The notes under the pieces were generated by a model. The model did not search any database. It had not been told where the DNA came from and saw only the letters and a program-made list of their open reading frames with translations. From Escherichia phage 6925: a stretch of 39,100 nucleotides of DNA. The stretch is from sequence record ON637250.1. The stretch is one strand, 5' to 3'. A program made the position numbers and the translations under genes. This document shows, one piece after another, positions 2,901 through 25,989 of the stretch; position 1 is the stretch's first letter, and each line of letters opens with the position of its first letter.

Positions 2901-5582
2901 ATGAGCGTCATCTCTATTGACAAGCACGACTTCTCTGATGTGTCGAACGCCATTGAGCCGTTTAACCTACTGGCTGACCACTACGGGCAAGACCTTGCAG
3001 TCAAACAGCTTCAGCTTGAGCACGAGGCATACACTGAAGGCGAGCGACGTTTCATCAAGAACCTTGAGAGACAGACTGAGCGAGGGGAACTGGCAGACAA
3101 TCAGGTCGCCAAGCCTTTGATGCAGACTCTGGTCCCTAAGATTGCGCAAGCCGTCAAGGAGTGGCATGAAGGTCCAGACGGGAAGCTGTCAACCTCTCGT
3201 CCAAGCGTAGCGTTCACCGTGTTGAGCACTGAAGAGAAGGCCGTCAAGGACCGCTCTATGCGCATCTCCTGTGAGTCCGCTGCGGTTATCATACTGAAGG
3301 TCATACTCTCCAAGCTGGTCAAGCCTGAAGGGATACCGATTACACCGATGGCCTCCGCGATAGGTCGCACACTTGAGGACGAAATCCGCTTCGGTCGCAT
3401 CCGTGACAAAGAGAAAGAGCACTTCAAGAAGGCGATAGCTGATAACCTGAATAAGCGGGCCGGGGCGTCATACAAGAAAGCCTACATGCAAGCGGTCGAG
3501 GCGTCCATGCTGGAGCAAGGCCAACTGGAAGATGCGTGGGGGACTTGGAGTCCTACAGAGGCTGTCCACGTTGGCATCAAGATGCTCGAGATTGTCATCC
3601 AGTCAACACAACTGGTCGAGCTTAAGCGGTACGGTGCTGGCAATGCAGCGGCTGATGTAGAGATGGTCCACCTGTCAGACTTCTGGGTCAAGAAGATGGC
3701 ACAACGAGGATTCAGCCTTGCGGGTATCGCTCCAGTCTATCAGCCTTGCGTCGTTCCACCTAAGCCGTGGACTGGTGTCGTAGGCGGTGGGTATTGGGCC
3801 AAAGGTCGAAGACCATTGCCACTGATTCGCTTAGGGTCTAAGTCTGCGGTATCACGCTACGAAGACGTGTATATGCCTGAAGTCTATGACGCTGTGAACA
3901 TCATTCAGAATACACCTTGGAAAGTGAACAAGAAGGTTCTGGAAGTGGTGAACATGGTCGAGAAGCTGAACAACACGCCTATTGATGACATCCCTCAGAT
4001 GGAACCGCTGAAGCCTGAGGACTATGCTGGTGAGACTGAAGAAGAACTCAAGGCATGGAAGAAGGCTGCTGCTGGTATCTATCGCCGCGAGAAGGCCAGA
4101 CAGTCACGAAGATTGTCACTGAGCTTTATCGTCAACCAAGCGAACAAGTTCTCTCAGTTCAAGGCCATCTGGTTCCCGTATAACATGGACTGGCGCGGTC
4201 GCGTCTACGCTGTGCCGATGTTCAACCCTCAGGGTAACGACATGCAAAAGGGTCTTCTGACTCTGGCAGTTGGTAAGCCTATTGGTGCTGATGGTTTCAA
4301 ATGGCTGAAGGTCCACGGTGCAAACTGCGCGGGTGTCGATAAAGTCACCTTCGAGGAGCGTATCAAGTGGGTGGAAGATAACCACGACAACATCATGGCT
4401 GCTGCCAAGGCACCGATGGATAGCATTGAGTGGTGGGGCAAGTTAGACTCTCCGTTCTGCTTCCTAGCGTTCTGCTTCGAGTATGCTGGCGTAATGCACC
4501 ACGGCTTGTCTTACTCCTGCTCGCTGCCGATAGCGTTCGATGGGTCCTGCTCTGGGATTCAGCACTTCAGCGCTATGCTTCGCGACCACATCGGTGGACA
4601 TGCAGTAAACCTGACGCCATCCGGTAAGGTCCAAGACATCTACCGCATCGTGTCTGACCGCATTGAGGAGGAGCTTAAAGTCCTACTGGTTAACGGTACG
4701 GACAACGAGATGGTAACTCACGAGGACAAGAAAACTGGTGAGATTACCGAACGTATCAAGCTGGGGACACGAGAGCTTGCCCGTCAGTGGCTGACCTACG
4801 GTATGTCACGAAAGGTCACTAAGCGTTCGGTCATGACTCTGGCCTACGGGTCGAAAGAGTACGGCTTCGCAGACCAAGTTTACGAGGACATCGTGATGCC
4901 AGCGATTGACTCAGGGTCTGGCGCTATGTTCACTGAACCAAGCCAAGCATCTCGCTTCATGGCTAAGATGATTTGGGAAGCTGTGAGTGTGACCGTAGTT
5001 GCTGCGGTTGACGCGATGAAGTGGCTTCAGGGTGCTGCCAAGCTGCTGGCTGCTGAAGTGAAGGACAAGAAGACTGGCGAAATCCTGAAGCCATGCCTTC
5101 CGGTACACTGGGTAACACCTGATGGTTTCCCTGTCTGGCAGGAATACCGCAAGAAGGATACCACTCGTCTGAACCTGATGTTCTTAGGGTCATTCAACCT
5201 TCAGCCTACAGTCAACAAAGGAACGAAGAAAGAGCTTGACAAGCACAAGCAGGAGTCAGGCATTAGCCCTAACTTCGTCCACTCACAAGATGGTAGCCAC
5301 CTGCGGAAGACTGTAGTCCACACTCACCGCAAGTATGGCGTGATGTCATTCGCAGTGATTCACGATAGCTTCGGGACCATCCCTGCTGACGCTGAGTATC
5401 TGTTCCGTGGTGTCCGTGAGACGATGGTCGAGACATACCGCGATAACGATGTGCTGCTTGACTTCTACGAGCAGTTTGAATACCAGCTTCATGAAAGTCA
5501 GCGCGACAAGTTGCCTGAGCTTCCGAAGAAAGGTAAACTGAATATCGAAGACATCTTGTCTTCAGACTTTGCATTCGCTTAA
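2901..5582 (+). CDS. 1: T7-like single-subunit DNA-dependent RNA polymerase
   Basis: 893 aa, collinear with T7 RNAP as recalled, including DGSCSGIQHFSAMLRD, HDSFGT and the C-terminal FAFA. RBS AAGGA. Confidence 0.97.
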   Translation: MSVISIDKHDFSDVSNAIEPFNLLADHYGQDLAVKQLQLEHEAYTEGERRFIKNLERQTERGELADNQVAKPLMQTLVPKIAQAVKEWHEGPDGKLSTSRPSVAFTVLSTEEKAVKDRSMRISCESAAVIILKVILSKLVKPEGIPITPMASAIGRTLEDEIRFGRIRDKEKEHFKKAIADNLNKRAGASYKKAYMQAVEASMLEQGQLEDAWGTWSPTEAVHVGIKMLEIVIQSTQLVELKRYGAGNAAADVEMVHLSDFWVKKMAQRGFSLAGIAPVYQPCVVPPKPWTGVVGGGYWAKGRRPLPLIRLGSKSAVSRYEDVYMPEVYDAVNIIQNTPWKVNKKVLEVVNMVEKLNNTPIDDIPQMEPLKPEDYAGETEEELKAWKKAAAGIYRREKARQSRRLSLSFIVNQANKFSQFKAIWFPYNMDWRGRVYAVPMFNPQGNDMQKGLLTLAVGKPIGADGFKWLKVHGANCAGVDKVTFEERIKWVEDNHDNIMAAAKAPMDSIEWWGKLDSPFCFLAFCFEYAGVMHHGLSYSCSLPIAFDGSCSGIQHFSAMLRDHIGGHAVNLTPSGKVQDIYRIVSDRIEEELKVLLVNGTDNEMVTHEDKKTGEITERIKLGTRELARQWLTYGMSRKVTKRSVMTLAYGSKEYGFADQVYEDIVMPAIDSGSGAMFTEPSQASRFMAKMIWEAVSVTVVAAVDAMKWLQGAAKLLAAEVKDKKTGEILKPCLPVHWVTPDGFPVWQEYRKKDTTRLNLMFLGSFNLQPTVNKGTKKELDKHKQESGISPNFVHSQDGSHLRKTVVHTHRKYGVMSFAVIHDSFGTIPADAEYLFRGVRETMVETYRDNDVLLDFYEQFEYQLHESQRDKLPELPKKGKLNIEDILSSDFAFA

Positions 5583-21174: not shown

Positions 21175-21197
21175 ACTAAACTATCACTATAGGGAGA
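21175..21197 (+). promoter_or_regulatory. Phage RNAP promoter (phi10-like), strongest consensus match
   Basis: ACTAAACTATCACTATA|GGGAGA; +1 at 21192. Confidence 0.8.
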
Positions 21198-21299
21198 CCA
21201 AGAGAAAGACTCAAGGTTTCCCTATTACTTCAGTCCATACGGATTGGGCATCCAGTAAGTAATAAACTTTATCTTTCAATTGAATAGGAGAATTATCAT

Positions 21300-22349
21300 A
21301 TGGCAAACGTTCCGGGTCAGAAAGTTGGTACAGACCAAGGTAAAGGCAAATCTGGTTCCGACGCTCTGGCGTTGTTCTTGAAGGTCTTTGCTGGCGAAGT
21401 CCTGACAGCATTCACTCGCCGCTCTGTAACTGCTGACAAGCATATTGTCCGTACCATTCAGAACGGTAAGTCTGCTCAGTTCCCGGTCATGGGTCGCACC
21501 TCTGGTGTGTATCTGGCTCCGGGTGAGCGACTGTCCGATAAGCGTAAAGGTATCAAACATACCGAGAAAGTGATTACCATTGATGGTCTGCTGACTGCCG
21601 ATGTGATGATTTTCGACATTGAAGACGCGATGAACCACTATGACGTGGCTGGCGAGTATTCCAACCAGCTAGGCGAAGCGCTGGCTATCGCTGCTGATGG
21701 TGCGGTACTGGCTGAGATGGCTATTCTGTGTAACCTACCGGCTGCATCTGATGAAAACATCGCTGGTCTTGGCAAAGCGTCTGTGCTGGAAGTTGGTACT
21801 AAAGCAGACCTGAACACTCCGGCTAAGCTGGGTGAAGCAATCATCGGTCAACTTACCATTGCTCGTGCGAAGCTGACATCCAACTACGTTCCTGCTGGCG
21901 ACCGTTACTTCTACACCACACCGGACAACTACTCTGCAATCCTCGCGGCTCTGATGCCGAACGCTGCTAACTATGCTGCGCTGATTGACCCAGAGACTGG
22001 TAACATCCGTAACGTAATGGGCTTCGTGGTTGTTGAAGTTCCACACTTGACTCAGGGTGGTGCTGGGGAAACTCGTGGTGCCGATGGTATCACTATTGCG
22101 ACTGGTCAGAAGCACGCCTTCCCAGCTACTGCTACTGGTGATGTTAAAGTTGCTCTGGACAACGTTGTGGGCCTGTTCTCTCACCGTTCTGCTGTAGGTA
22201 CTGTTAAGCTGCGTGACTTGGCGCTGGAACGTGACCGCGACGTCGATGCTCAGGGCGACCTGATTGTTGGTAAGTACGCTATGGGTCACGGTGGTCTGCG
22301 TCCAGAAGCAGCAGGCGCACTGGTTTTCACAGCGGCGTCAGCGGGTTAA
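21300..22349 (+). CDS. 10A: Major capsid protein (10A)
   Basis: 349 aa; LALFLKVF.GEVLTAF, KSAQFPV.GRT, HTEKVITIDGLLTADV, AILAALMPNAANYAALIDPE, RSAVGTVKLRDLALER and KYAMGHGGLRPEAAGA match T7 gp10A. Confidence 0.97.
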   Translation: MANVPGQKVGTDQGKGKSGSDALALFLKVFAGEVLTAFTRRSVTADKHIVRTIQNGKSAQFPVMGRTSGVYLAPGERLSDKRKGIKHTEKVITIDGLLTADVMIFDIEDAMNHYDVAGEYSNQLGEALAIAADGAVLAEMAILCNLPAASDENIAGLGKASVLEVGTKADLNTPAKLGEAIIGQLTIARAKLTSNYVPAGDRYFYTTPDNYSAILAALMPNAANYAALIDPETGNIRNVMGFVVVEVPHLTQGGAGETRGADGITIATGQKHAFPATATGDVKVALDNVVGLFSHRSAVGTVKLRDLALERDRDVDAQGDLIVGKYAMGHGGLRPEAAGALVFTAASAG

Positions 22350-22612
22350 CGACCTTTAAGGCCCTCTCTACCGAGGGTCCTACCTTAGAGACGTATAGTT
22401 CTACGGTGGGAACCAGCTTGAAGGTTGACTTCCCGGAGCTTTCAGATGTGACCGACTGGTCGCTGCTTGATGTTACTACGCCTGATGGTGTTAGCTACTC
22501 CCGTAGAACCAACAGTCTCTACTTCAAGGCCACCTCTGGCGTGGAAGGTCTAGTGATTGTTGAGTATGACGGTTCGCCTGTGCGTTCCTTCAACGTATCT
22601 TTCACAAACTAA
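22322..22612 (+). CDS. 10B: Putative 10B-specific C-terminal extension reached by programmed -1 frameshift at the GGTTTTC slippery site (22322-22328)
   Basis: Heptamer G_GTT_TTC sits 7 codons before the 10A stop. The -1 frame is open for about 95 codons from the slip site to a TAA at 22610-22612, immediately before Tphi. Confidence 0.55.
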   Translation, partial: GFHSGVSGLTTFKALSTEGPTLETYSSTVGTSLKVDFPELSDVTDWSLLDVTTPDGVSYSRRTNSLYFKATSGVEGLVIVEYDGSPVRSFNVSFTN

Positions 22613-22615
22613 TTG

Positions 22616-22655
22616 AAACCCCTTGGGTGCCTTCGGGTGCTTGAGGGGTTTTTTG
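22616..22655 (+). terminator. Tphi-like intrinsic terminator for phage RNAP
   Basis: AACCCCTTGGGTGCCTTCGGGTGCTTGAGGGGTTTTTTG: a GC-rich hairpin plus T6 run, closely resembling T7 Tphi, directly after the capsid gene. Confidence 0.85.
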
Positions 22656-22669
22656 CTTAAGGAGGGAAT

Positions 22670-22759
22670 ATGGTCCTTATTTACACAGGGTTAGCACTAT
22701 TCGTTTTATTCTGGGCGTACCTTCTGTCCAGCTCACCGTCTAGTGCCTATGACCGTTAA
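22670..22759 (+). CDS. Possible mini-ORF (29 aa, one hydrophobic helix) between Tphi and gene 11
   Basis: AAGGAGGG then ATG, MVLIYTGLALFVLFWAYLLSSSPSSAYDR. The RBS and ATG sit where T7 has the gene 11 start; here an in-frame TAA separates it from the gene 11 ATG at 22772. Confidence 0.35.
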   Translation: MVLIYTGLALFVLFWAYLLSSSPSSAYDR

Positions 22760-22771
22760 GGAGTAAAACCT

Positions 22772-23338
22772 ATGGCTCAATACATTCCACTGAATGCTAA
22801 CGATGACTTAGATGCCATCAACGATATGTTAGCAGCTATCGGTGAACCAGCAGTCCTACAGCTTGACGAAGGTAACGCTGACGTCTCGAACGCTCAACGT
22901 ATCCTGCATCGTGTCAATCGTCAGGTCCAAGCTAAAGGCTGGAACTTTAACATCAACGAAGCTGCTGTCCTGACACCTGATGTCCAAGACAATAGGATTC
23001 GATTCCTGCCGTCTTACCTTCGGGTCATGACTGCTGGTGCTACCAGTTACTACAGCAACATGGGGGGCTATCTCTATGACCTGTCCACTCAGTCCACGAC
23101 CTTCACTGGACCAATTACAGTCGAACTGGTGGAGATGAAACCGTTCGCTGAGATGCCTGTAGTATTCCGTGACTACATCGTTACCAAGGCTAGCCGTGAG
23201 TTCAACGCTAAGTTCTTCGGTAGCCCAGAGTCTGAACTGTACCTTCGTGAGCAGGAAGCAGAACTCTACCAGCAGGTGATGGAGTACGAGATGGACACTG
23301 GTCGCTACAACATGATGTCCGACATCGGGAGGGACTAA
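22772..23338 (+). CDS. 11: Tail tubular protein A
   Basis: 188 aa; INDMLAAIGEP, QRILHRVNRQVQAKGWNFNI, YVTKASREFNAKFFG and MEYEMD match T7 gp11. RBS TAAGGAG. Confidence 0.93.
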   Translation: MAQYIPLNANDDLDAINDMLAAIGEPAVLQLDEGNADVSNAQRILHRVNRQVQAKGWNFNINEAAVLTPDVQDNRIRFLPSYLRVMTAGATSYYSNMGGYLYDLSTQSTTFTGPITVELVEMKPFAEMPVVFRDYIVTKASREFNAKFFGSPESELYLREQEAELYQQVMEYEMDTGRYNMMSDIGRD

Positions 23339-23565
23339 TGGCTAGTCACAACCTGAAGATTCACCGCCAGCACTTTGGTCCGGTACAACTAGGTCTAAAG
23401 ACAGCAGAGCTGAGACTTAACGACCGGGACTTTAATGTTGGCGACTGGCTTATCCTGAATGAGTGGGACAACGGGTATACTGGACAACAGGTAGCACGTA
23501 AGGTTGTCCACATTGCTGACGTTGGTGACATCGCTGAGGGATACGTCCTAATGAGTATGATTTAA
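23338..23565 (+). CDS. ASCH/PUA-like small protein (DUF3850-type signature) inserted between tail tubular A and B
   Basis: 75 aa; the H.LKI...F.PV..G.KT.E.R.NDRDF.VGDWL.L.EWD...YTG pattern fits the DUF3850/ASCH signature as I recall it. Start overlaps the gene 11 stop (TAATG). T7 has gene 12 directly after gene 11. Confidence 0.6.
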   Translation: MASHNLKIHRQHFGPVQLGLKTAELRLNDRDFNVGDWLILNEWDNGYTGQQVARKVVHIADVGDIAEGYVLMSMI

Positions 23566-23574
23566 GGAGGGCAT

Positions 23575-25932
23575 ATGCCGCTTATCACACAAAGCATAAA
23601 AAATCTTAAGGGTGGCATTAGCCAACAGCCTGATATCCTGAGGTTCTCAGACCAAGGAGAGGCGCAAGTTAACTGCTGGTCATCCGAAAGTGATGGACTC
23701 CAGAAGCGTCCACCTACAGTCTTCAAGCGACGTCTTAACATCGACGTTGGGAGCAACCCTAAGTTCCACCTGATTAACCGTGACGAGCATGAGCAGTATT
23801 ACATCGTGTTCAATGGGTCCAACATTCAGGTAGTTGACTTGAGTGGTAATCAATACTCAGTTTCCGGTGCGGTAGATTACGTTAAGTCGTCCAACCCGCG
23901 AGATGACATACGTGTCGTTACCGTTGCAGACTATACGTTCATCGTGAACCGTAAGGTTGTCGTTAAAGGTGGAAGCGAGAAGTCACACTCTGGTTATAAT
24001 CGTAAAGCTCGTGCTTTAATTAACCTGCGTGGTGGACAGTATGGTCGCACCCTTAAGGTAGGAATCAACGGAGGAGTTAAGGTTTCGCATAAGTTGCCAG
24101 CAGGTAATGATGCCGAGAATGACCCTCCTAAGGTTGATGCTCAGGCTATCGGTGCAGCTCTAAGAGACCTTCTTGTTGCTGCTTACCCTACCTTCACGTT
24201 CGACCTTGGGTCTGGCTTCCTGTTAATCACTGCCCCTTCAGGTACTGACATTAACTCAGTGGAGACGGAGGATGGATACGCTAACCAGCTAATCAGCCCA
24301 GTCCTCGACACGGTGCAAACAATCTCTAAGTTGCCTCTTGCAGCTCCAAATGGGTACATCATTAAGATTCAAGGTGAGACCAACAGTAGCGCCGATGAAT
24401 ATTACGTGATGTATGACTCCAACACTAAGACGTGGAAGGAGACAGTAGAGCCGGGAGTTGTCACTGGGTTCGATGTAACCACAATGCCACATGCTCTGGT
24501 CAGAAAGTCTGATGGCTCCTTTGAGTTCAAGACTCTGGACTGGTCTAAGCGCGGTGCGGGTAATGATGACACAAACCCTATGCCCAGCTTCGTGGATGCT
24601 ACGATTAACGATGTGTTCTTCTACAGGAACAGGCTGGGGTTCTTGTCGGGCGAGAACGTAATTATGAGCCGTTCAGCCAGCTACTTTGCGTTCTTCCCTA
24701 AGAGTGTGGCGACATTGAGTGATGATGATCCTATTGACGTAGCTGTAAGTCACCCTCGAATCTCAATCCTTAAGTATGCCGTTCCGTTTAGCGAGCAGCT
24801 ACTACTTTGGTCGGATGAGGTTCAGTTCGTGATGACAAGCTCTGGGGTACTTACCTCGAAGTCTATCCAGCTTGATGTAGGCTCAGAGTTTGCCTTAGGA
24901 GATAATGCCAGACCGTTCGCTGTAGGACGCTCAGTCTTCTTCTCAGCACCTCGTGGGTCATTCACCAGCATTAAGCGATACTTCGCTGTAGCAGATGTGT
25001 CTGACGTGAAGGATGCCGATGATACCACTGGTCACGTACTGTCCTATATCCCTAACGGGGTGTTTGACATTCAGGGGACAGGGACTGAGAACTACATCTG
25101 CGTCAACTCTACAGGTGCATACAACAGAATCTACATCTACAAGTTCTTGTTTAAGGACGGCGTACAGCTTCAAGCCTCTTGGTCGCACTGGGAGTTCCCT
25201 AAAGCTGATAAGATTCTGGCGTCTGCGTCGATTGGCTCTACCATGTTCATTGTTCGTCAGCACCAAGGCGGAGTGGACCTTGAGCACCTTAAGTTCATCA
25301 AGGAGGCCACTGACTTTCCGTTAGAACCATATAGACTCCACGTTGACTCCAAGGTGTCTATGGTAATACCAATTGGCTCATACAACGCTGACACCTATAA
25401 GACTACGGTTGACATTGGTTCTGCTTATGGTGGAAACGCTCCGTCTCCCGGTAGGTACTATCTGATTGACAGTCAGGGTGCCTACGTGGACCTTGGTGAA
25501 TTGACCGACATCTCAACTGTGGCTGTACTCAATGGTGATTGGTCAGGACGTACAGTGTTCATCGGACGGTCTTATCTGATGTCCTACAAGTTCTCACGGT
25601 TCCTGATTAAGATTGAAGACGAGAGTGGCACTCAGTCTGAAGACACTGGTCGTCTACAGCTTCGTCGTGCTTGGGTAAACTACAAGGACACTGGCGCTCT
25701 TAGACTCATTGTCAGAAACGGTGAGCGGGAGTTCGTGAACACCTTTAATGGGTACACCCTTGGTCAGCAAACCATCGGGACTACCAACATTGGGGATGGA
25801 CAGTATCGCTTCGCTATGAATGGTAACGCATTAACCACGAGTCTAACCTTAGAGTCCGACTATCCTACCCCGGTGTCCATCGTTGGGTGTGGCTGGGAGG
25901 CGTCATACGCTAAGAAAGCTCGTTCCGTCTAA
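23575..25932 (+). CDS. 12: Tail tubular protein B
   Basis: 785 aa, collinear with T7 gp12 (SIKNLKGGISQQPDILR, HLINRDEHEQYY, VTVADYTFIVNR, NDVFFYRNRLGFLSGEN, DDDPIDVAVS, GRLQLRRAWVNY, GCGWE). Confidence 0.96.
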   Translation: MPLITQSIKNLKGGISQQPDILRFSDQGEAQVNCWSSESDGLQKRPPTVFKRRLNIDVGSNPKFHLINRDEHEQYYIVFNGSNIQVVDLSGNQYSVSGAVDYVKSSNPRDDIRVVTVADYTFIVNRKVVVKGGSEKSHSGYNRKARALINLRGGQYGRTLKVGINGGVKVSHKLPAGNDAENDPPKVDAQAIGAALRDLLVAAYPTFTFDLGSGFLLITAPSGTDINSVETEDGYANQLISPVLDTVQTISKLPLAAPNGYIIKIQGETNSSADEYYVMYDSNTKTWKETVEPGVVTGFDVTTMPHALVRKSDGSFEFKTLDWSKRGAGNDDTNPMPSFVDATINDVFFYRNRLGFLSGENVIMSRSASYFAFFPKSVATLSDDDPIDVAVSHPRISILKYAVPFSEQLLLWSDEVQFVMTSSGVLTSKSIQLDVGSEFALGDNARPFAVGRSVFFSAPRGSFTSIKRYFAVADVSDVKDADDTTGHVLSYIPNGVFDIQGTGTENYICVNSTGAYNRIYIYKFLFKDGVQLQASWSHWEFPKADKILASASIGSTMFIVRQHQGGVDLEHLKFIKEATDFPLEPYRLHVDSKVSMVIPIGSYNADTYKTTVDIGSAYGGNAPSPGRYYLIDSQGAYVDLGELTDISTVAVLNGDWSGRTVFIGRSYLMSYKFSRFLIKIEDESGTQSEDTGRLQLRRAWVNYKDTGALRLIVRNGEREFVNTFNGYTLGQQTIGTTNIGDGQYRFAMNGNALTTSLTLESDYPTPVSIVGCGWEASYAKKARSV

Positions 25933-25939
25933 CTTATTG

Positions 25940-25989
25940 AAGGGCCTATAGATTTACCTTAACTATCACTATAGGGACTATAGGCCCTT
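25940..25989 (+). promoter_or_regulatory. Phage RNAP promoter (phi13-like, -17..+6 at 25957-25979) nested inside a perfect 12-bp inverted repeat
   Basis: CCTTAACTATCACTATA|GGGACT with +1 at 25974. Arms AAGGGCCTATAG (25940-25951) and CTATAGGCCCTT (25978-25989). Confidence 0.7.

Follow-up and report, generated by a model that had tools for sequence, protein, structure and literature searches.

Why does a T7-like phage carry a small gene between its two tail tubular genes? The question is raised by Escherichia phage 6925 (ON637250.1), a T7-like phage of the genus Kayfunavirus (Autographiviridae, Studiervirinae), of which we analysed one stretch of 39,100 nucleotides (nt), here called the window. 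A sequence-only reading of this DNA had described a 75-amino-acid (aa) open reading frame (ORF) at 23338-23565, between genes 11 and 12, and had assigned its product to DUF3850/ASCH, with a PUA-like fold. We found the ORF at that position, with the residues quoted for it, and profile matches, a hit to PDB entry 3IUW, a structure model and Foldseek all agreed with the assignment. We are highly confident that this is an accessory, non-structural DUF3850/ASCH gene. The best overall explanation, towards which we lean slightly, is an accessory late ASCH gene whose product likely acts outside the tail as an N4-acyl-cytidine hydrolase or specific binder.

The protein and its family

The Pfam profile DUF3850 (PF12961) matched residues 4-73 of the protein over profile positions 2-76 of 77, with E=3.7e-19 and 69.1 bits against a gathering cutoff of 22.9, and this match is far beyond chance. 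PHROG 986 matched with E=1.8e-34, and PDB 3IUW was found with the single sequence (E=1.7e-10) as well as with the family profile (E=2.8e-23). The Pfam ASCH profile (PF04266; PUA-like clan) matched with E=1.8e-5, only its positions 2-61 of 103 (the N-terminal 60%) being covered. A search of NCBIfam gave zero matches.

A hidden Markov model (HMM) search and structure prediction with fold comparison had been proposed as checks by the sequence-only reading. The search gave the significant DUF3850 and ASCH hits listed above. An AlphaFold2 model, built with 74 diverse homologues, had a mean predicted local distance difference test score (pLDDT) of 97.1 and consisted of five strands and one helix. 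Foldseek superimposed it on 3IUW with a template modelling score (TM) of 0.89-0.92, so that the predicted structure has the DUF3850 fold and forms the ASCH beta-barrel. The reference structure is that of an Enterococcus faecalis EF_0920-type 'activating signal cointegrator' of 83 aa, a structural genomics entry with no publication. Compared with PF12961 and 3IUW there is structurally no difference; what differs is the position in the genome, among T7-like tail genes as opposed to replication, early and nin regions.

DUF3850 is a large family, with 4859 cluster representatives (50% identity; E<=1e-3) in a library of 1.84 billion proteins and 556 phage records matched by tblastn. When BFVD was searched by fold for a characterised viral protein, only uncharacterised DUF3850/ASCH proteins were returned, and a Pfam scan of ten long DUF3850 proteins showed nothing in their extensions except DUF3850 and ASCH.

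The protein carries the ASCH octapeptide G-x-K-x-x-[ET]-x-R as G19-L-K21-T-A-E24-L-R26, which aligns to G-R-K-T-I-T-I-R of YqfB, and continues with the family-specific N28-D29-R30. The longer family signature K-x-x-E-[LI]-R-x-N-D-R-x-[YF]-x-x-G-D is present as K21-T-A-E24-L-R26-L-N28-D29-R30-D-F-N-V-G35-D36, its positions being invariant or at least 90% conserved in the 74 homologues. These share 43-97% identity with the phage 6925 protein, and K21, E24, R26 and D29 do not vary in any of them. A full-length ASCH domain (about 100+ residues, with a C-terminal helical part) is not present. Because the chain ends at residue 75, the protein is a truncated, minimal version of ASCH; it is a bona fide member of DUF3850 and a truncated member of the ASCH superfamily.

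Expression and selection

The gene and the features around it are as follows.

23338-23340 (ATG) to 23563-23565 (TAA), + strand: DUF3850/ASCH gene, 75 aa; from the ORF, Pfam/PHROG matches, the structure model and the ratio of nonsynonymous to synonymous substitution rates (dN/dS)
22772..23338, + strand: gene 11, tail tubular protein A, upstream neighbour; Pfam PF17212 Tube, E=6e-46, and the annotation of phages LM33_P1 and K1F
23575..25932, + strand: gene 12, tail tubular protein B / nozzle, downstream neighbour; from the ORF, annotations, and PF25675 Phage_nozzle on orthologues
23327..23333, + strand: Shine-Dalgarno (SD) sequence GGGAGGG of the DUF3850 gene, formed where gene 11, near its end, encodes Gly-Arg as GGG AGG
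23336..23340, + strand: TAATG stop/start overlap from gene 11 (TAA 23336-23338) to the DUF3850 gene; from the sequence
23564..23570, + strand: SD sequence AAGGAGG of gene 12, overlapping the DUF3850 stop codon; from the sequence
22630..22657, + strand: Tphi-like intrinsic terminator between genes 10 and 11, upstream of genes 11, DUF3850 and 12
21179..21193, + strand: phi10-like promoter core of the phage RNA polymerase, AACTATCACTATAGG, the nearest one upstream of the DUF3850 gene
25961..25975, + strand: phi13-like promoter core of the phage RNA polymerase, AACTATCACTATAGG, closing the gene 11-DUF3850-gene 12 unit
2813, 6134, 8015, 8889, 11267, 17306, 20144, 21179, 25961, 33237 and 38500, + strand: all copies of AACTATCACTATAGG, the transcription map of phage 6925

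The coupling to gene 11 by TAATG, pointed out in the sequence-only reading, can be read at 23336-23340, with GGGAGGG lying inside gene 11. The motif GGGAG(G/A)G was present in 17 of 17 genomes with a TAATG-coupled ORF (15 with the DUF3850 gene and two of the K1F type described below) and in none of ten genomes of the spacer type, in nine of which the same Gly-Arg pair is written GGT CGA and in one, L027, AGC CGA. The codons of this pair in gene 11 co-vary perfectly with the coupled ORF, direct evidence from sequence that the SD is selected for the ORF downstream. On these signals, the DUF3850 gene is translationally coupled to gene 11 through TAATG and the embedded SD.

The promoter core was found 11 times with 0-2 mismatches, always on the + strand, against 0.98 copies expected by chance. 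There was none between the copy at 21179, ahead of gene 10, and the one at 25961, past gene 12, and at the DUF3850 gene no sigma-70 promoter or terminator gave a signal above background. Genes 11 and 12 of T7 also lie downstream of a terminator, as do genes 11, DUF3850 and 12 here. Since the interval 21179-25961 is free of promoters, a Tphi-like terminator stands upstream and T7 has the same layout, the three genes would, by this analogy, have to be expressed from late transcripts that read through the terminator at 22630-22657. The expectation that the gene is made together with the late structural genes agrees with its place in this gene 11-12 read-through unit. Rfam gave 0 hits and ARAGORN 0 tRNAs in the window, and folding of the RNA at 23290-23400 revealed no unusual structure (z = -0.32). 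An antisense ORF at 23361-23531 was considered and set aside as unsupported.

Substitution rates were estimated from 20 loci with the gene (phage 6925 and 19 fetched loci). The DUF3850 gene had a dN/dS of 0.14, gene 11 one of 0.02 and the start of gene 12 one of 0.04; in comparison with an allele of 84% identity the DUF3850 value was 0.12 (dN 0.115, dS 0.96, the latter saturating). Values as low as these identify the ORF as a functional protein-coding gene where it is present, and there it is under purifying selection. The dS of the gene (0.19) was about half that of its flanks (gene 11, 0.39; gene 12, 0.31). Across 13 genomes with the gene, nucleotide diversity was 0.02-0.03 over 23250-23490, a stretch that takes in the final ~90 nt of gene 11 and two-thirds of the DUF3850 gene from its start, versus 0.04-0.13 in the flanks. 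This low-diversity tract is consistent with a recent spread of the main allele. Where the DUF3850 gene borders gene 12, diversity peaks at about 0.10, which suggests that a recombination breakpoint lies at this border.

Two side observations were made elsewhere in the sequence. The window has one intact ORF for an 893-aa phage RNA polymerase at 2901-5582, and RefSeq LM33_P1 (L001:410-3091) gives the enzyme as two coding sequences (656 + 228 aa), one labelled 'N4-like RNA polymerase'. Because the phage 6925 ORF is intact, the split in LM33_P1 is probably a sequencing or annotation artefact. A T7-like slippery heptamer, G GTT TTC, lies at 22322-22328, 19 nt upstream of the 10A stop codon (22347-22349), and the -1 frame, open over 22274-22612, runs past the end of the major capsid gene. 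The 68-aa ORF at 22406-22612, a 'hypothetical protein' in LM33_P1 and LET1 (phrog_7473), is most likely, from its sequence setting, the C-terminal extension of the frameshifted minor capsid protein gp10B and not a separate gene.

Gain and loss at the gene 11/12 junction

By megablast, the region matched 215 phage records and was 97.9% identical to that of Escherichia phage LM33_P1, where gp38 (YP_009324512.1), located between two tail-tube genes, is labelled 'RNA-binding protein'. Other records name the same gene 'DUF3850 domain-containing protein' or 'hypothetical protein'. At the protein level the Kayfunavirus orthologues (LM33_P1, Vec13, ST31, FFK3) are 95-99% identical, and their locus and TAATG coupling are unchanged; there is essentially no difference, and phage 6925 is one more isolate. 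The same gene at the same site is public and annotated in more than 100 Kayfunavirus genomes and so is already known.

The gene had been taken for an insertion on the ground that gene 12 of T7 directly follows gene 11, and a comparison of synteny had been proposed to decide the point. In T7 the gap between the two genes is indeed a 23-nt spacer that lacks the DUF3850 gene. The gene is also missing from K1F, the type phage of the genus, where the ATG that opens the DUF3850 gene in phage 6925 is the start of gene 12 and the junction reads ...GGGAGGGAC TA followed by ATG CCG.... Among 24 relatives in IMG/VR, with gp11 68-99% identical, the gene occupied the junction in 13 and was absent from 11. 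GenBank held ~217 phage records with gp11 of at least 80% identity, and ~154-168 of these (~70-75%) carry the DUF3850 clade; the gene is missing from many Kayfunavirus genomes whose gp11 and gp12 are about 98% identical. With T7, K1F and 11 of the 24 IMG/VR relatives lacking it, the insertion claim held, and the patchy presence with clean junctions allowed it to be sharpened to that of a variable cassette.

Two types of empty site were distinguished. In the spacer type, which also occurs in more distant relatives, gene 11 ends in GGT CGA GAC and a spacer of 14-16 nt follows (TAA TAGGAGGTGAT atg). The K1F type keeps GGG AGG GAC TAATG; it accounted for no fewer than 20 of the 60 best junction matches and is found in many E. 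coli phages. Alleles of 84% and 44% identity still have a 3' junction (TAA CTGGAGGTGAT atg) like that of the spacer-type empty site. From these junction sequences, the most parsimonious history would be insertion into a spacer-type ancestor and later precise deletions, giving rise to the K1F type.

The alleles themselves vary widely. Identity to phage 6925, for the DUF3850 protein and gp11 respectively, was 67% and 99% in L113, 60% and 94% in Pectobacterium phage LET1 and 43% and 81% in the CR44b-like L026, a 39,207-bp contig from IMG/VR; the DUF3850 alleles diverge about as much as the mosaic gp12. Those of LET1 (L112:2067-2285) and L026 (L026:3567-3791) occupy the same junction and have kept G-x-K-x-x-(E/D)-x-R and lost NDR, and the BFVD model of the CR44b protein has the same fold (TM 0.93). 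The nearest relative beyond the T7-like phages is P0063, a protein of 89 aa with about 60% identity (L115:2501-2770, an ENA metagenome contig of 40,346 bp). It is encoded in a lambdoid nin region, with a phiTE_015-like gene on one side and NinB, NinX, NinG and Q on the other, which makes enterobacterial lambdoid prophages a plausible donor pool.

The junction has received other DNA as well. In Hafnia phage yong1 (vB_HpaA_yong1, MK610268) the DUF3850 gene that follows gp11 is intact and is itself followed by a 146-aa endonuclease-VII/HNH gene (L110:990-1430), whose end overlaps the start of gene 12. This insertion marks the gene 11/12 junction as an insertion hotspot, also for a homing-type endonuclease. 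In Kayfunavirus LI10P1 (OZ035801; L111, approx. 755-900) we found a remnant ORF that reads MASHN and then HETGEVRGLLCRHCNKSLGGFKDSREILLNAAKYLEDTCRLSHKA, in which the first five DUF3850 codons (MASHN) are joined to the C-terminal 42 residues of a yong1-type endonuclease, with the break at a shared CACAAC. Judged from its sequence, the remnant seems to have arisen by deletion between two copies of the CACAAC microhomology, and it shows that both inserted genes have decayed here. Phage 6925 itself carries no endonuclease.

Taken at the level of sequence comparison, the DUF3850 gene behaves as a variable cassette that undergoes gain, precise loss, decay and exchange within the genus. It shares with morons and with the homing-endonuclease insertions of the T7 group a precise insertion between conserved genes, translation signals of its own, a patchy distribution in close relatives, clean losses and, sometimes, an adjoining homing-type endonuclease. 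The suggestion that it could be a moron therefore stood in part, for the patchy presence and clean junctions, and failed for the promoter and terminator, neither of which is present at the gene: classical lambdoid morons have their own, whereas this gene is served by the late operon and so falls outside the classical definition of a moron. It also differs from homing-endonuclease insertions, since the DUF3850 protein has no nuclease motif.

What the protein may do

In the explanation that we favour, an accessory, non-essential late gene would supply a minimal ASCH-type PUA-like beta-barrel that belongs to DUF3850 and stands alone. Its Lys21/Glu24(/Arg26) cleft would accommodate a cytosine-type nucleobase, as in characterised ASCH proteins. 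Late in infection the protein may act as a small N4-acyl-cytidine amidohydrolase, an 'eraser' of N4-acetylcytidine (ac4C), on host tRNA, RNA or free nucleoside or, as an alternative minimum, as a specific binder of an N4-acyl-cytidine-type base. The outcome would be a conditional, host-dependent fitness benefit and not a part of the tail. By analogy with other ASCH proteins, action through the cleft on a nucleobase, nucleoside or nucleic acid is probable; catalysis as an N4-acylcytidine hydrolase is possible but doubtful, and a phage-encoded eraser of ac4C or N4-acyl-cytidine, or a counter-defence factor, is quite unlikely.

The strongest mechanistic clue is the active-site motif. In a preprint of February 2026, 19 of 19 tested ASCH proteins, Thr-type as well as Glu-type ('GKER'), removed ac4C from E. 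coli tRNA in vitro (preprint 10.64898/2026.02.27.708502). The Lys/Glu dyad was essential, with Glu-to-Asp tolerated in TthASCH and EOLA1 (10.64898/2026.02.27.708502). The phage protein has the dyad of the Glu-type tRNA ac4C deacetylases, K21 and E24, both invariant. In the HMM alignment, which ends at about residue 56, its K21/E24/R26 fall on K21/T24/R26 of YqfB, where K21, T24, R26 and E74 are catalytic (PMC9599836). Like the YqfB-type N4-acetylcytidine amidohydrolases (E. coli YqfB, PDB 1TE7/9KYF), the phage protein has Lys21 and Arg26. It differs in having Glu24 in place of the nucleophile Thr24, in being 28 residues shorter without an equivalent of the Glu74 region, and in a sequence similarity to YqfB that is marginal (E about 0.02, profile). 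With Thr24 and Glu74 both lacking, it is not a YqfB-type enzyme. The Glu-type ASCH proteins (T. thermophilus TthASCH, 2DP9; human EOLA1; the ASCH domain of TRIP4/ASC-1; Zymomonas ZmASCH) are larger, with 120-160 residues and additional helices; several of them are basic proteins that bind nucleic acids, and ZmASCH is reported as a single-stranded RNA nuclease. The 19 proteins of 10.64898/2026.02.27.708502 included none from DUF3850 or from a phage.

Charge adds a further argument. The ASCH proteins that stably bind nucleic acids mostly have an isoelectric point (pI) of at least 9, and acidic YqfB-type enzymes do not bind (10.64898/2026.02.27.708502). The phage protein has a pI of 6.0 and a net charge of -2; the family median pI is also 6.0, and 72% of members have a net charge of zero or below. 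An acidic protein with an invariant octapeptide, read together with the preprint, favours an N4-modified-cytosine hydrolase or specific binder over a general RNA-binding regulator. In TthASCH, the aromatic/hydrophobic residues Tyr14 and Tyr81 position the nucleoside (10.64898/2026.02.27.708502). An invariant aromatic residue of the phage family, F/Y13, stands 8 residues before Lys21, compared with a distance of 9 in TthASCH.

Several points weigh against this explanation. A counterpart of Tyr81 of TthASCH was not established in the 75-aa protein, DUF3850 falls well short of the characterised ASCH enzymes in length and lacks the C-terminal part with YqfB Glu74, and the loss of NDR in L026 and LET1 means either that NDR is non-essential or that these alleles are decaying. 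An earlier study found no hydrolysis of the ac4C nucleoside by the Glu-type proteins ZmASCH, TRIP4 and EOLA1, and the preprint itself cautions that the deacetylase activity of ASCH proteins may be a remnant (both in 10.64898/2026.02.27.708502). In the literature on DUF3850 we found no assay and no function for any member, in the literature searched we found no link between ac4C and phage infection, and no benefit of ac4C removal to the phage could be named. Nor was a paper on this gene in Kayfunavirus found, and a search for gp11.5 in K1F gave a single match, to an unrelated K1E gene. A pairing with an acetyl 'writer' was also considered, as gene 13 ('MYIRKATEQDV') looked GNAT-like; it proved to be ordinary T7 gp13 (PF11090, E=4e-42).

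Of the alternatives, the one that survives best is a non-catalytic binder or reader of RNA or DNA, possibly of a modified base, in the manner of YTH-, EVE- or SRA-type PUA-like domains; it would control translation late in infection or the stability of RNA, or else mask nucleic acid of the phage or the host, and is what the 'RNA-binding protein' label implies. The PUA-like fold of the protein is indeed common to YTH, EVE and McrB-N readers, and ZmASCH and the TRIP4 ASCH domain bind nucleic acids. According to a paper on ParB-CTPase, phage DUF3850 is frequently fused to the ParB-CTPase domain and co-encoded with ParA; it is often C-terminal, where canonical ParB has its DNA-binding helix-turn-helix. 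DNA methyltransferases are among DUF3850 neighbours in other phages. Against this stand the acidity of the protein and of most of its family, when the ASCH proteins that shift tRNA in gels mostly have a pI of at least 9 and acidic YqfB shows no binding, and the strict invariance of the Lys/Glu/Arg octapeptide, a pattern of enzymes. The 'RNA-binding' label was carried over from a 2006 prediction for ASCH. We consider a pure reader unlikely, if not greatly so.

An anti-defence role, in which the barrel would either remove a nucleotide-derived immune signal, by sequestration or hydrolysis, or shield phage nucleic acid from a modification-sensing or tRNA-targeting defence, seems to us decidedly unlikely. 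It would account for the patchy, cassette-like distribution, that is, for presence/absence polymorphism in near-identical phages and alleles far more divergent than gp11, and the low-diversity tract suggests recent spread. The protein is small and stand-alone with no conserved partner, and the ParB-CTPase paper speculates about such a role for phage ParB-CTPase fusions, those with DUF3850 included. However, PADLOC-DB gave only a non-significant match (PDC-M07B, E=0.0059, 14.7 bits, 34 residues), the gene is late when counter-defences against early-acting systems are mostly early genes, and a dN/dS of 0.14 is purifying and not diversifying. The neighbouring gp12 is equally mosaic, so the divergence of the alleles may reflect regional recombination.

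The setting of the family elsewhere bears on whether the tail is involved. At 74 other viral loci, DUF3850 genes lay among genes for single-stranded DNA-binding protein, DNA methyltransferase, primase/helicase, P2 gpA-type nickase and nucleotide kinase, in general replication/DNA-modification and early modules and not in tail modules; within two neighbours on either side there was no conserved operon partner (290 ORFs in 213 clusters). On this comparison the position among tail genes is peculiar to Kayfunavirus, and this, with K1F being viable, speaks against a role specific to the tail. It is very improbable that the protein helps to assemble the tail or is a minor part of the virion, produced together with gp11 and gp12 so as to act on both: a structural tail protein would be expected to accompany gp11 and gp12 throughout the T7 group, and this gene is missing from T7, K1F and many Kayfunavirus genomes.

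Equally improbable is a hitch-hiking or selfish passenger that does the phage no good and has spread through recombination or co-conversion, the junction being an indel hotspot that a homing-type endonuclease occupies at times: the endonuclease-VII/HNH gene of yong1 and the DUF3850-HNH remnant of LI10P1 at the same junction, the dip in diversity to 0.02-0.03 from the end of gene 11 to two-thirds of the DUF3850 gene and the repeated loss of the gene would fit it, but dN/dS is 0.12-0.14 even between alleles with a saturating dS of 0.96, the catalytic-motif residues are invariant, a dedicated SD is kept by rare codons in gene 11, the family persists in thousands of phage and prophage lineages, and the window contains no endonuclease.

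As an object the gene is ordinary, since well over 100 Kayfunavirus genomes already carry it at 95-99% identity under the label DUF3850 or 'RNA-binding protein'; should the protein prove inactive, it would be just another conserved accessory ORF. Its value lies in the family: in phages and prophages DUF3850 is very widely represented, a structure has been solved, a function is still to be assigned, and the Kayfunavirus gene offers a test case. Nature provides a near-isogenic set, with the gene present (phage 6925, LM33_P1), precisely deleted (K1F) or replaced by divergent alleles (CR44b, LET1), and this set, together with the evidence for ac4C deacylation by ASCH proteins, makes a direct functional test cheap. 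If the protein were an eraser, a lytic phage would edit the host epitranscriptome late in infection, for example at ac4C34 of elongator tRNA-Met or in other RNA, so that decoding would be retuned or the tRNA would become invisible to a modification-dependent defence nuclease. It would then be the first viral RNA-modification 'eraser' and would give a function to DUF3850 in phages, prophages, integrative and conjugative elements and ParB-CTPase fusions. Whether as an RNA-modification eraser or as a counter-defence factor, it would represent a new class of phage-host interaction.

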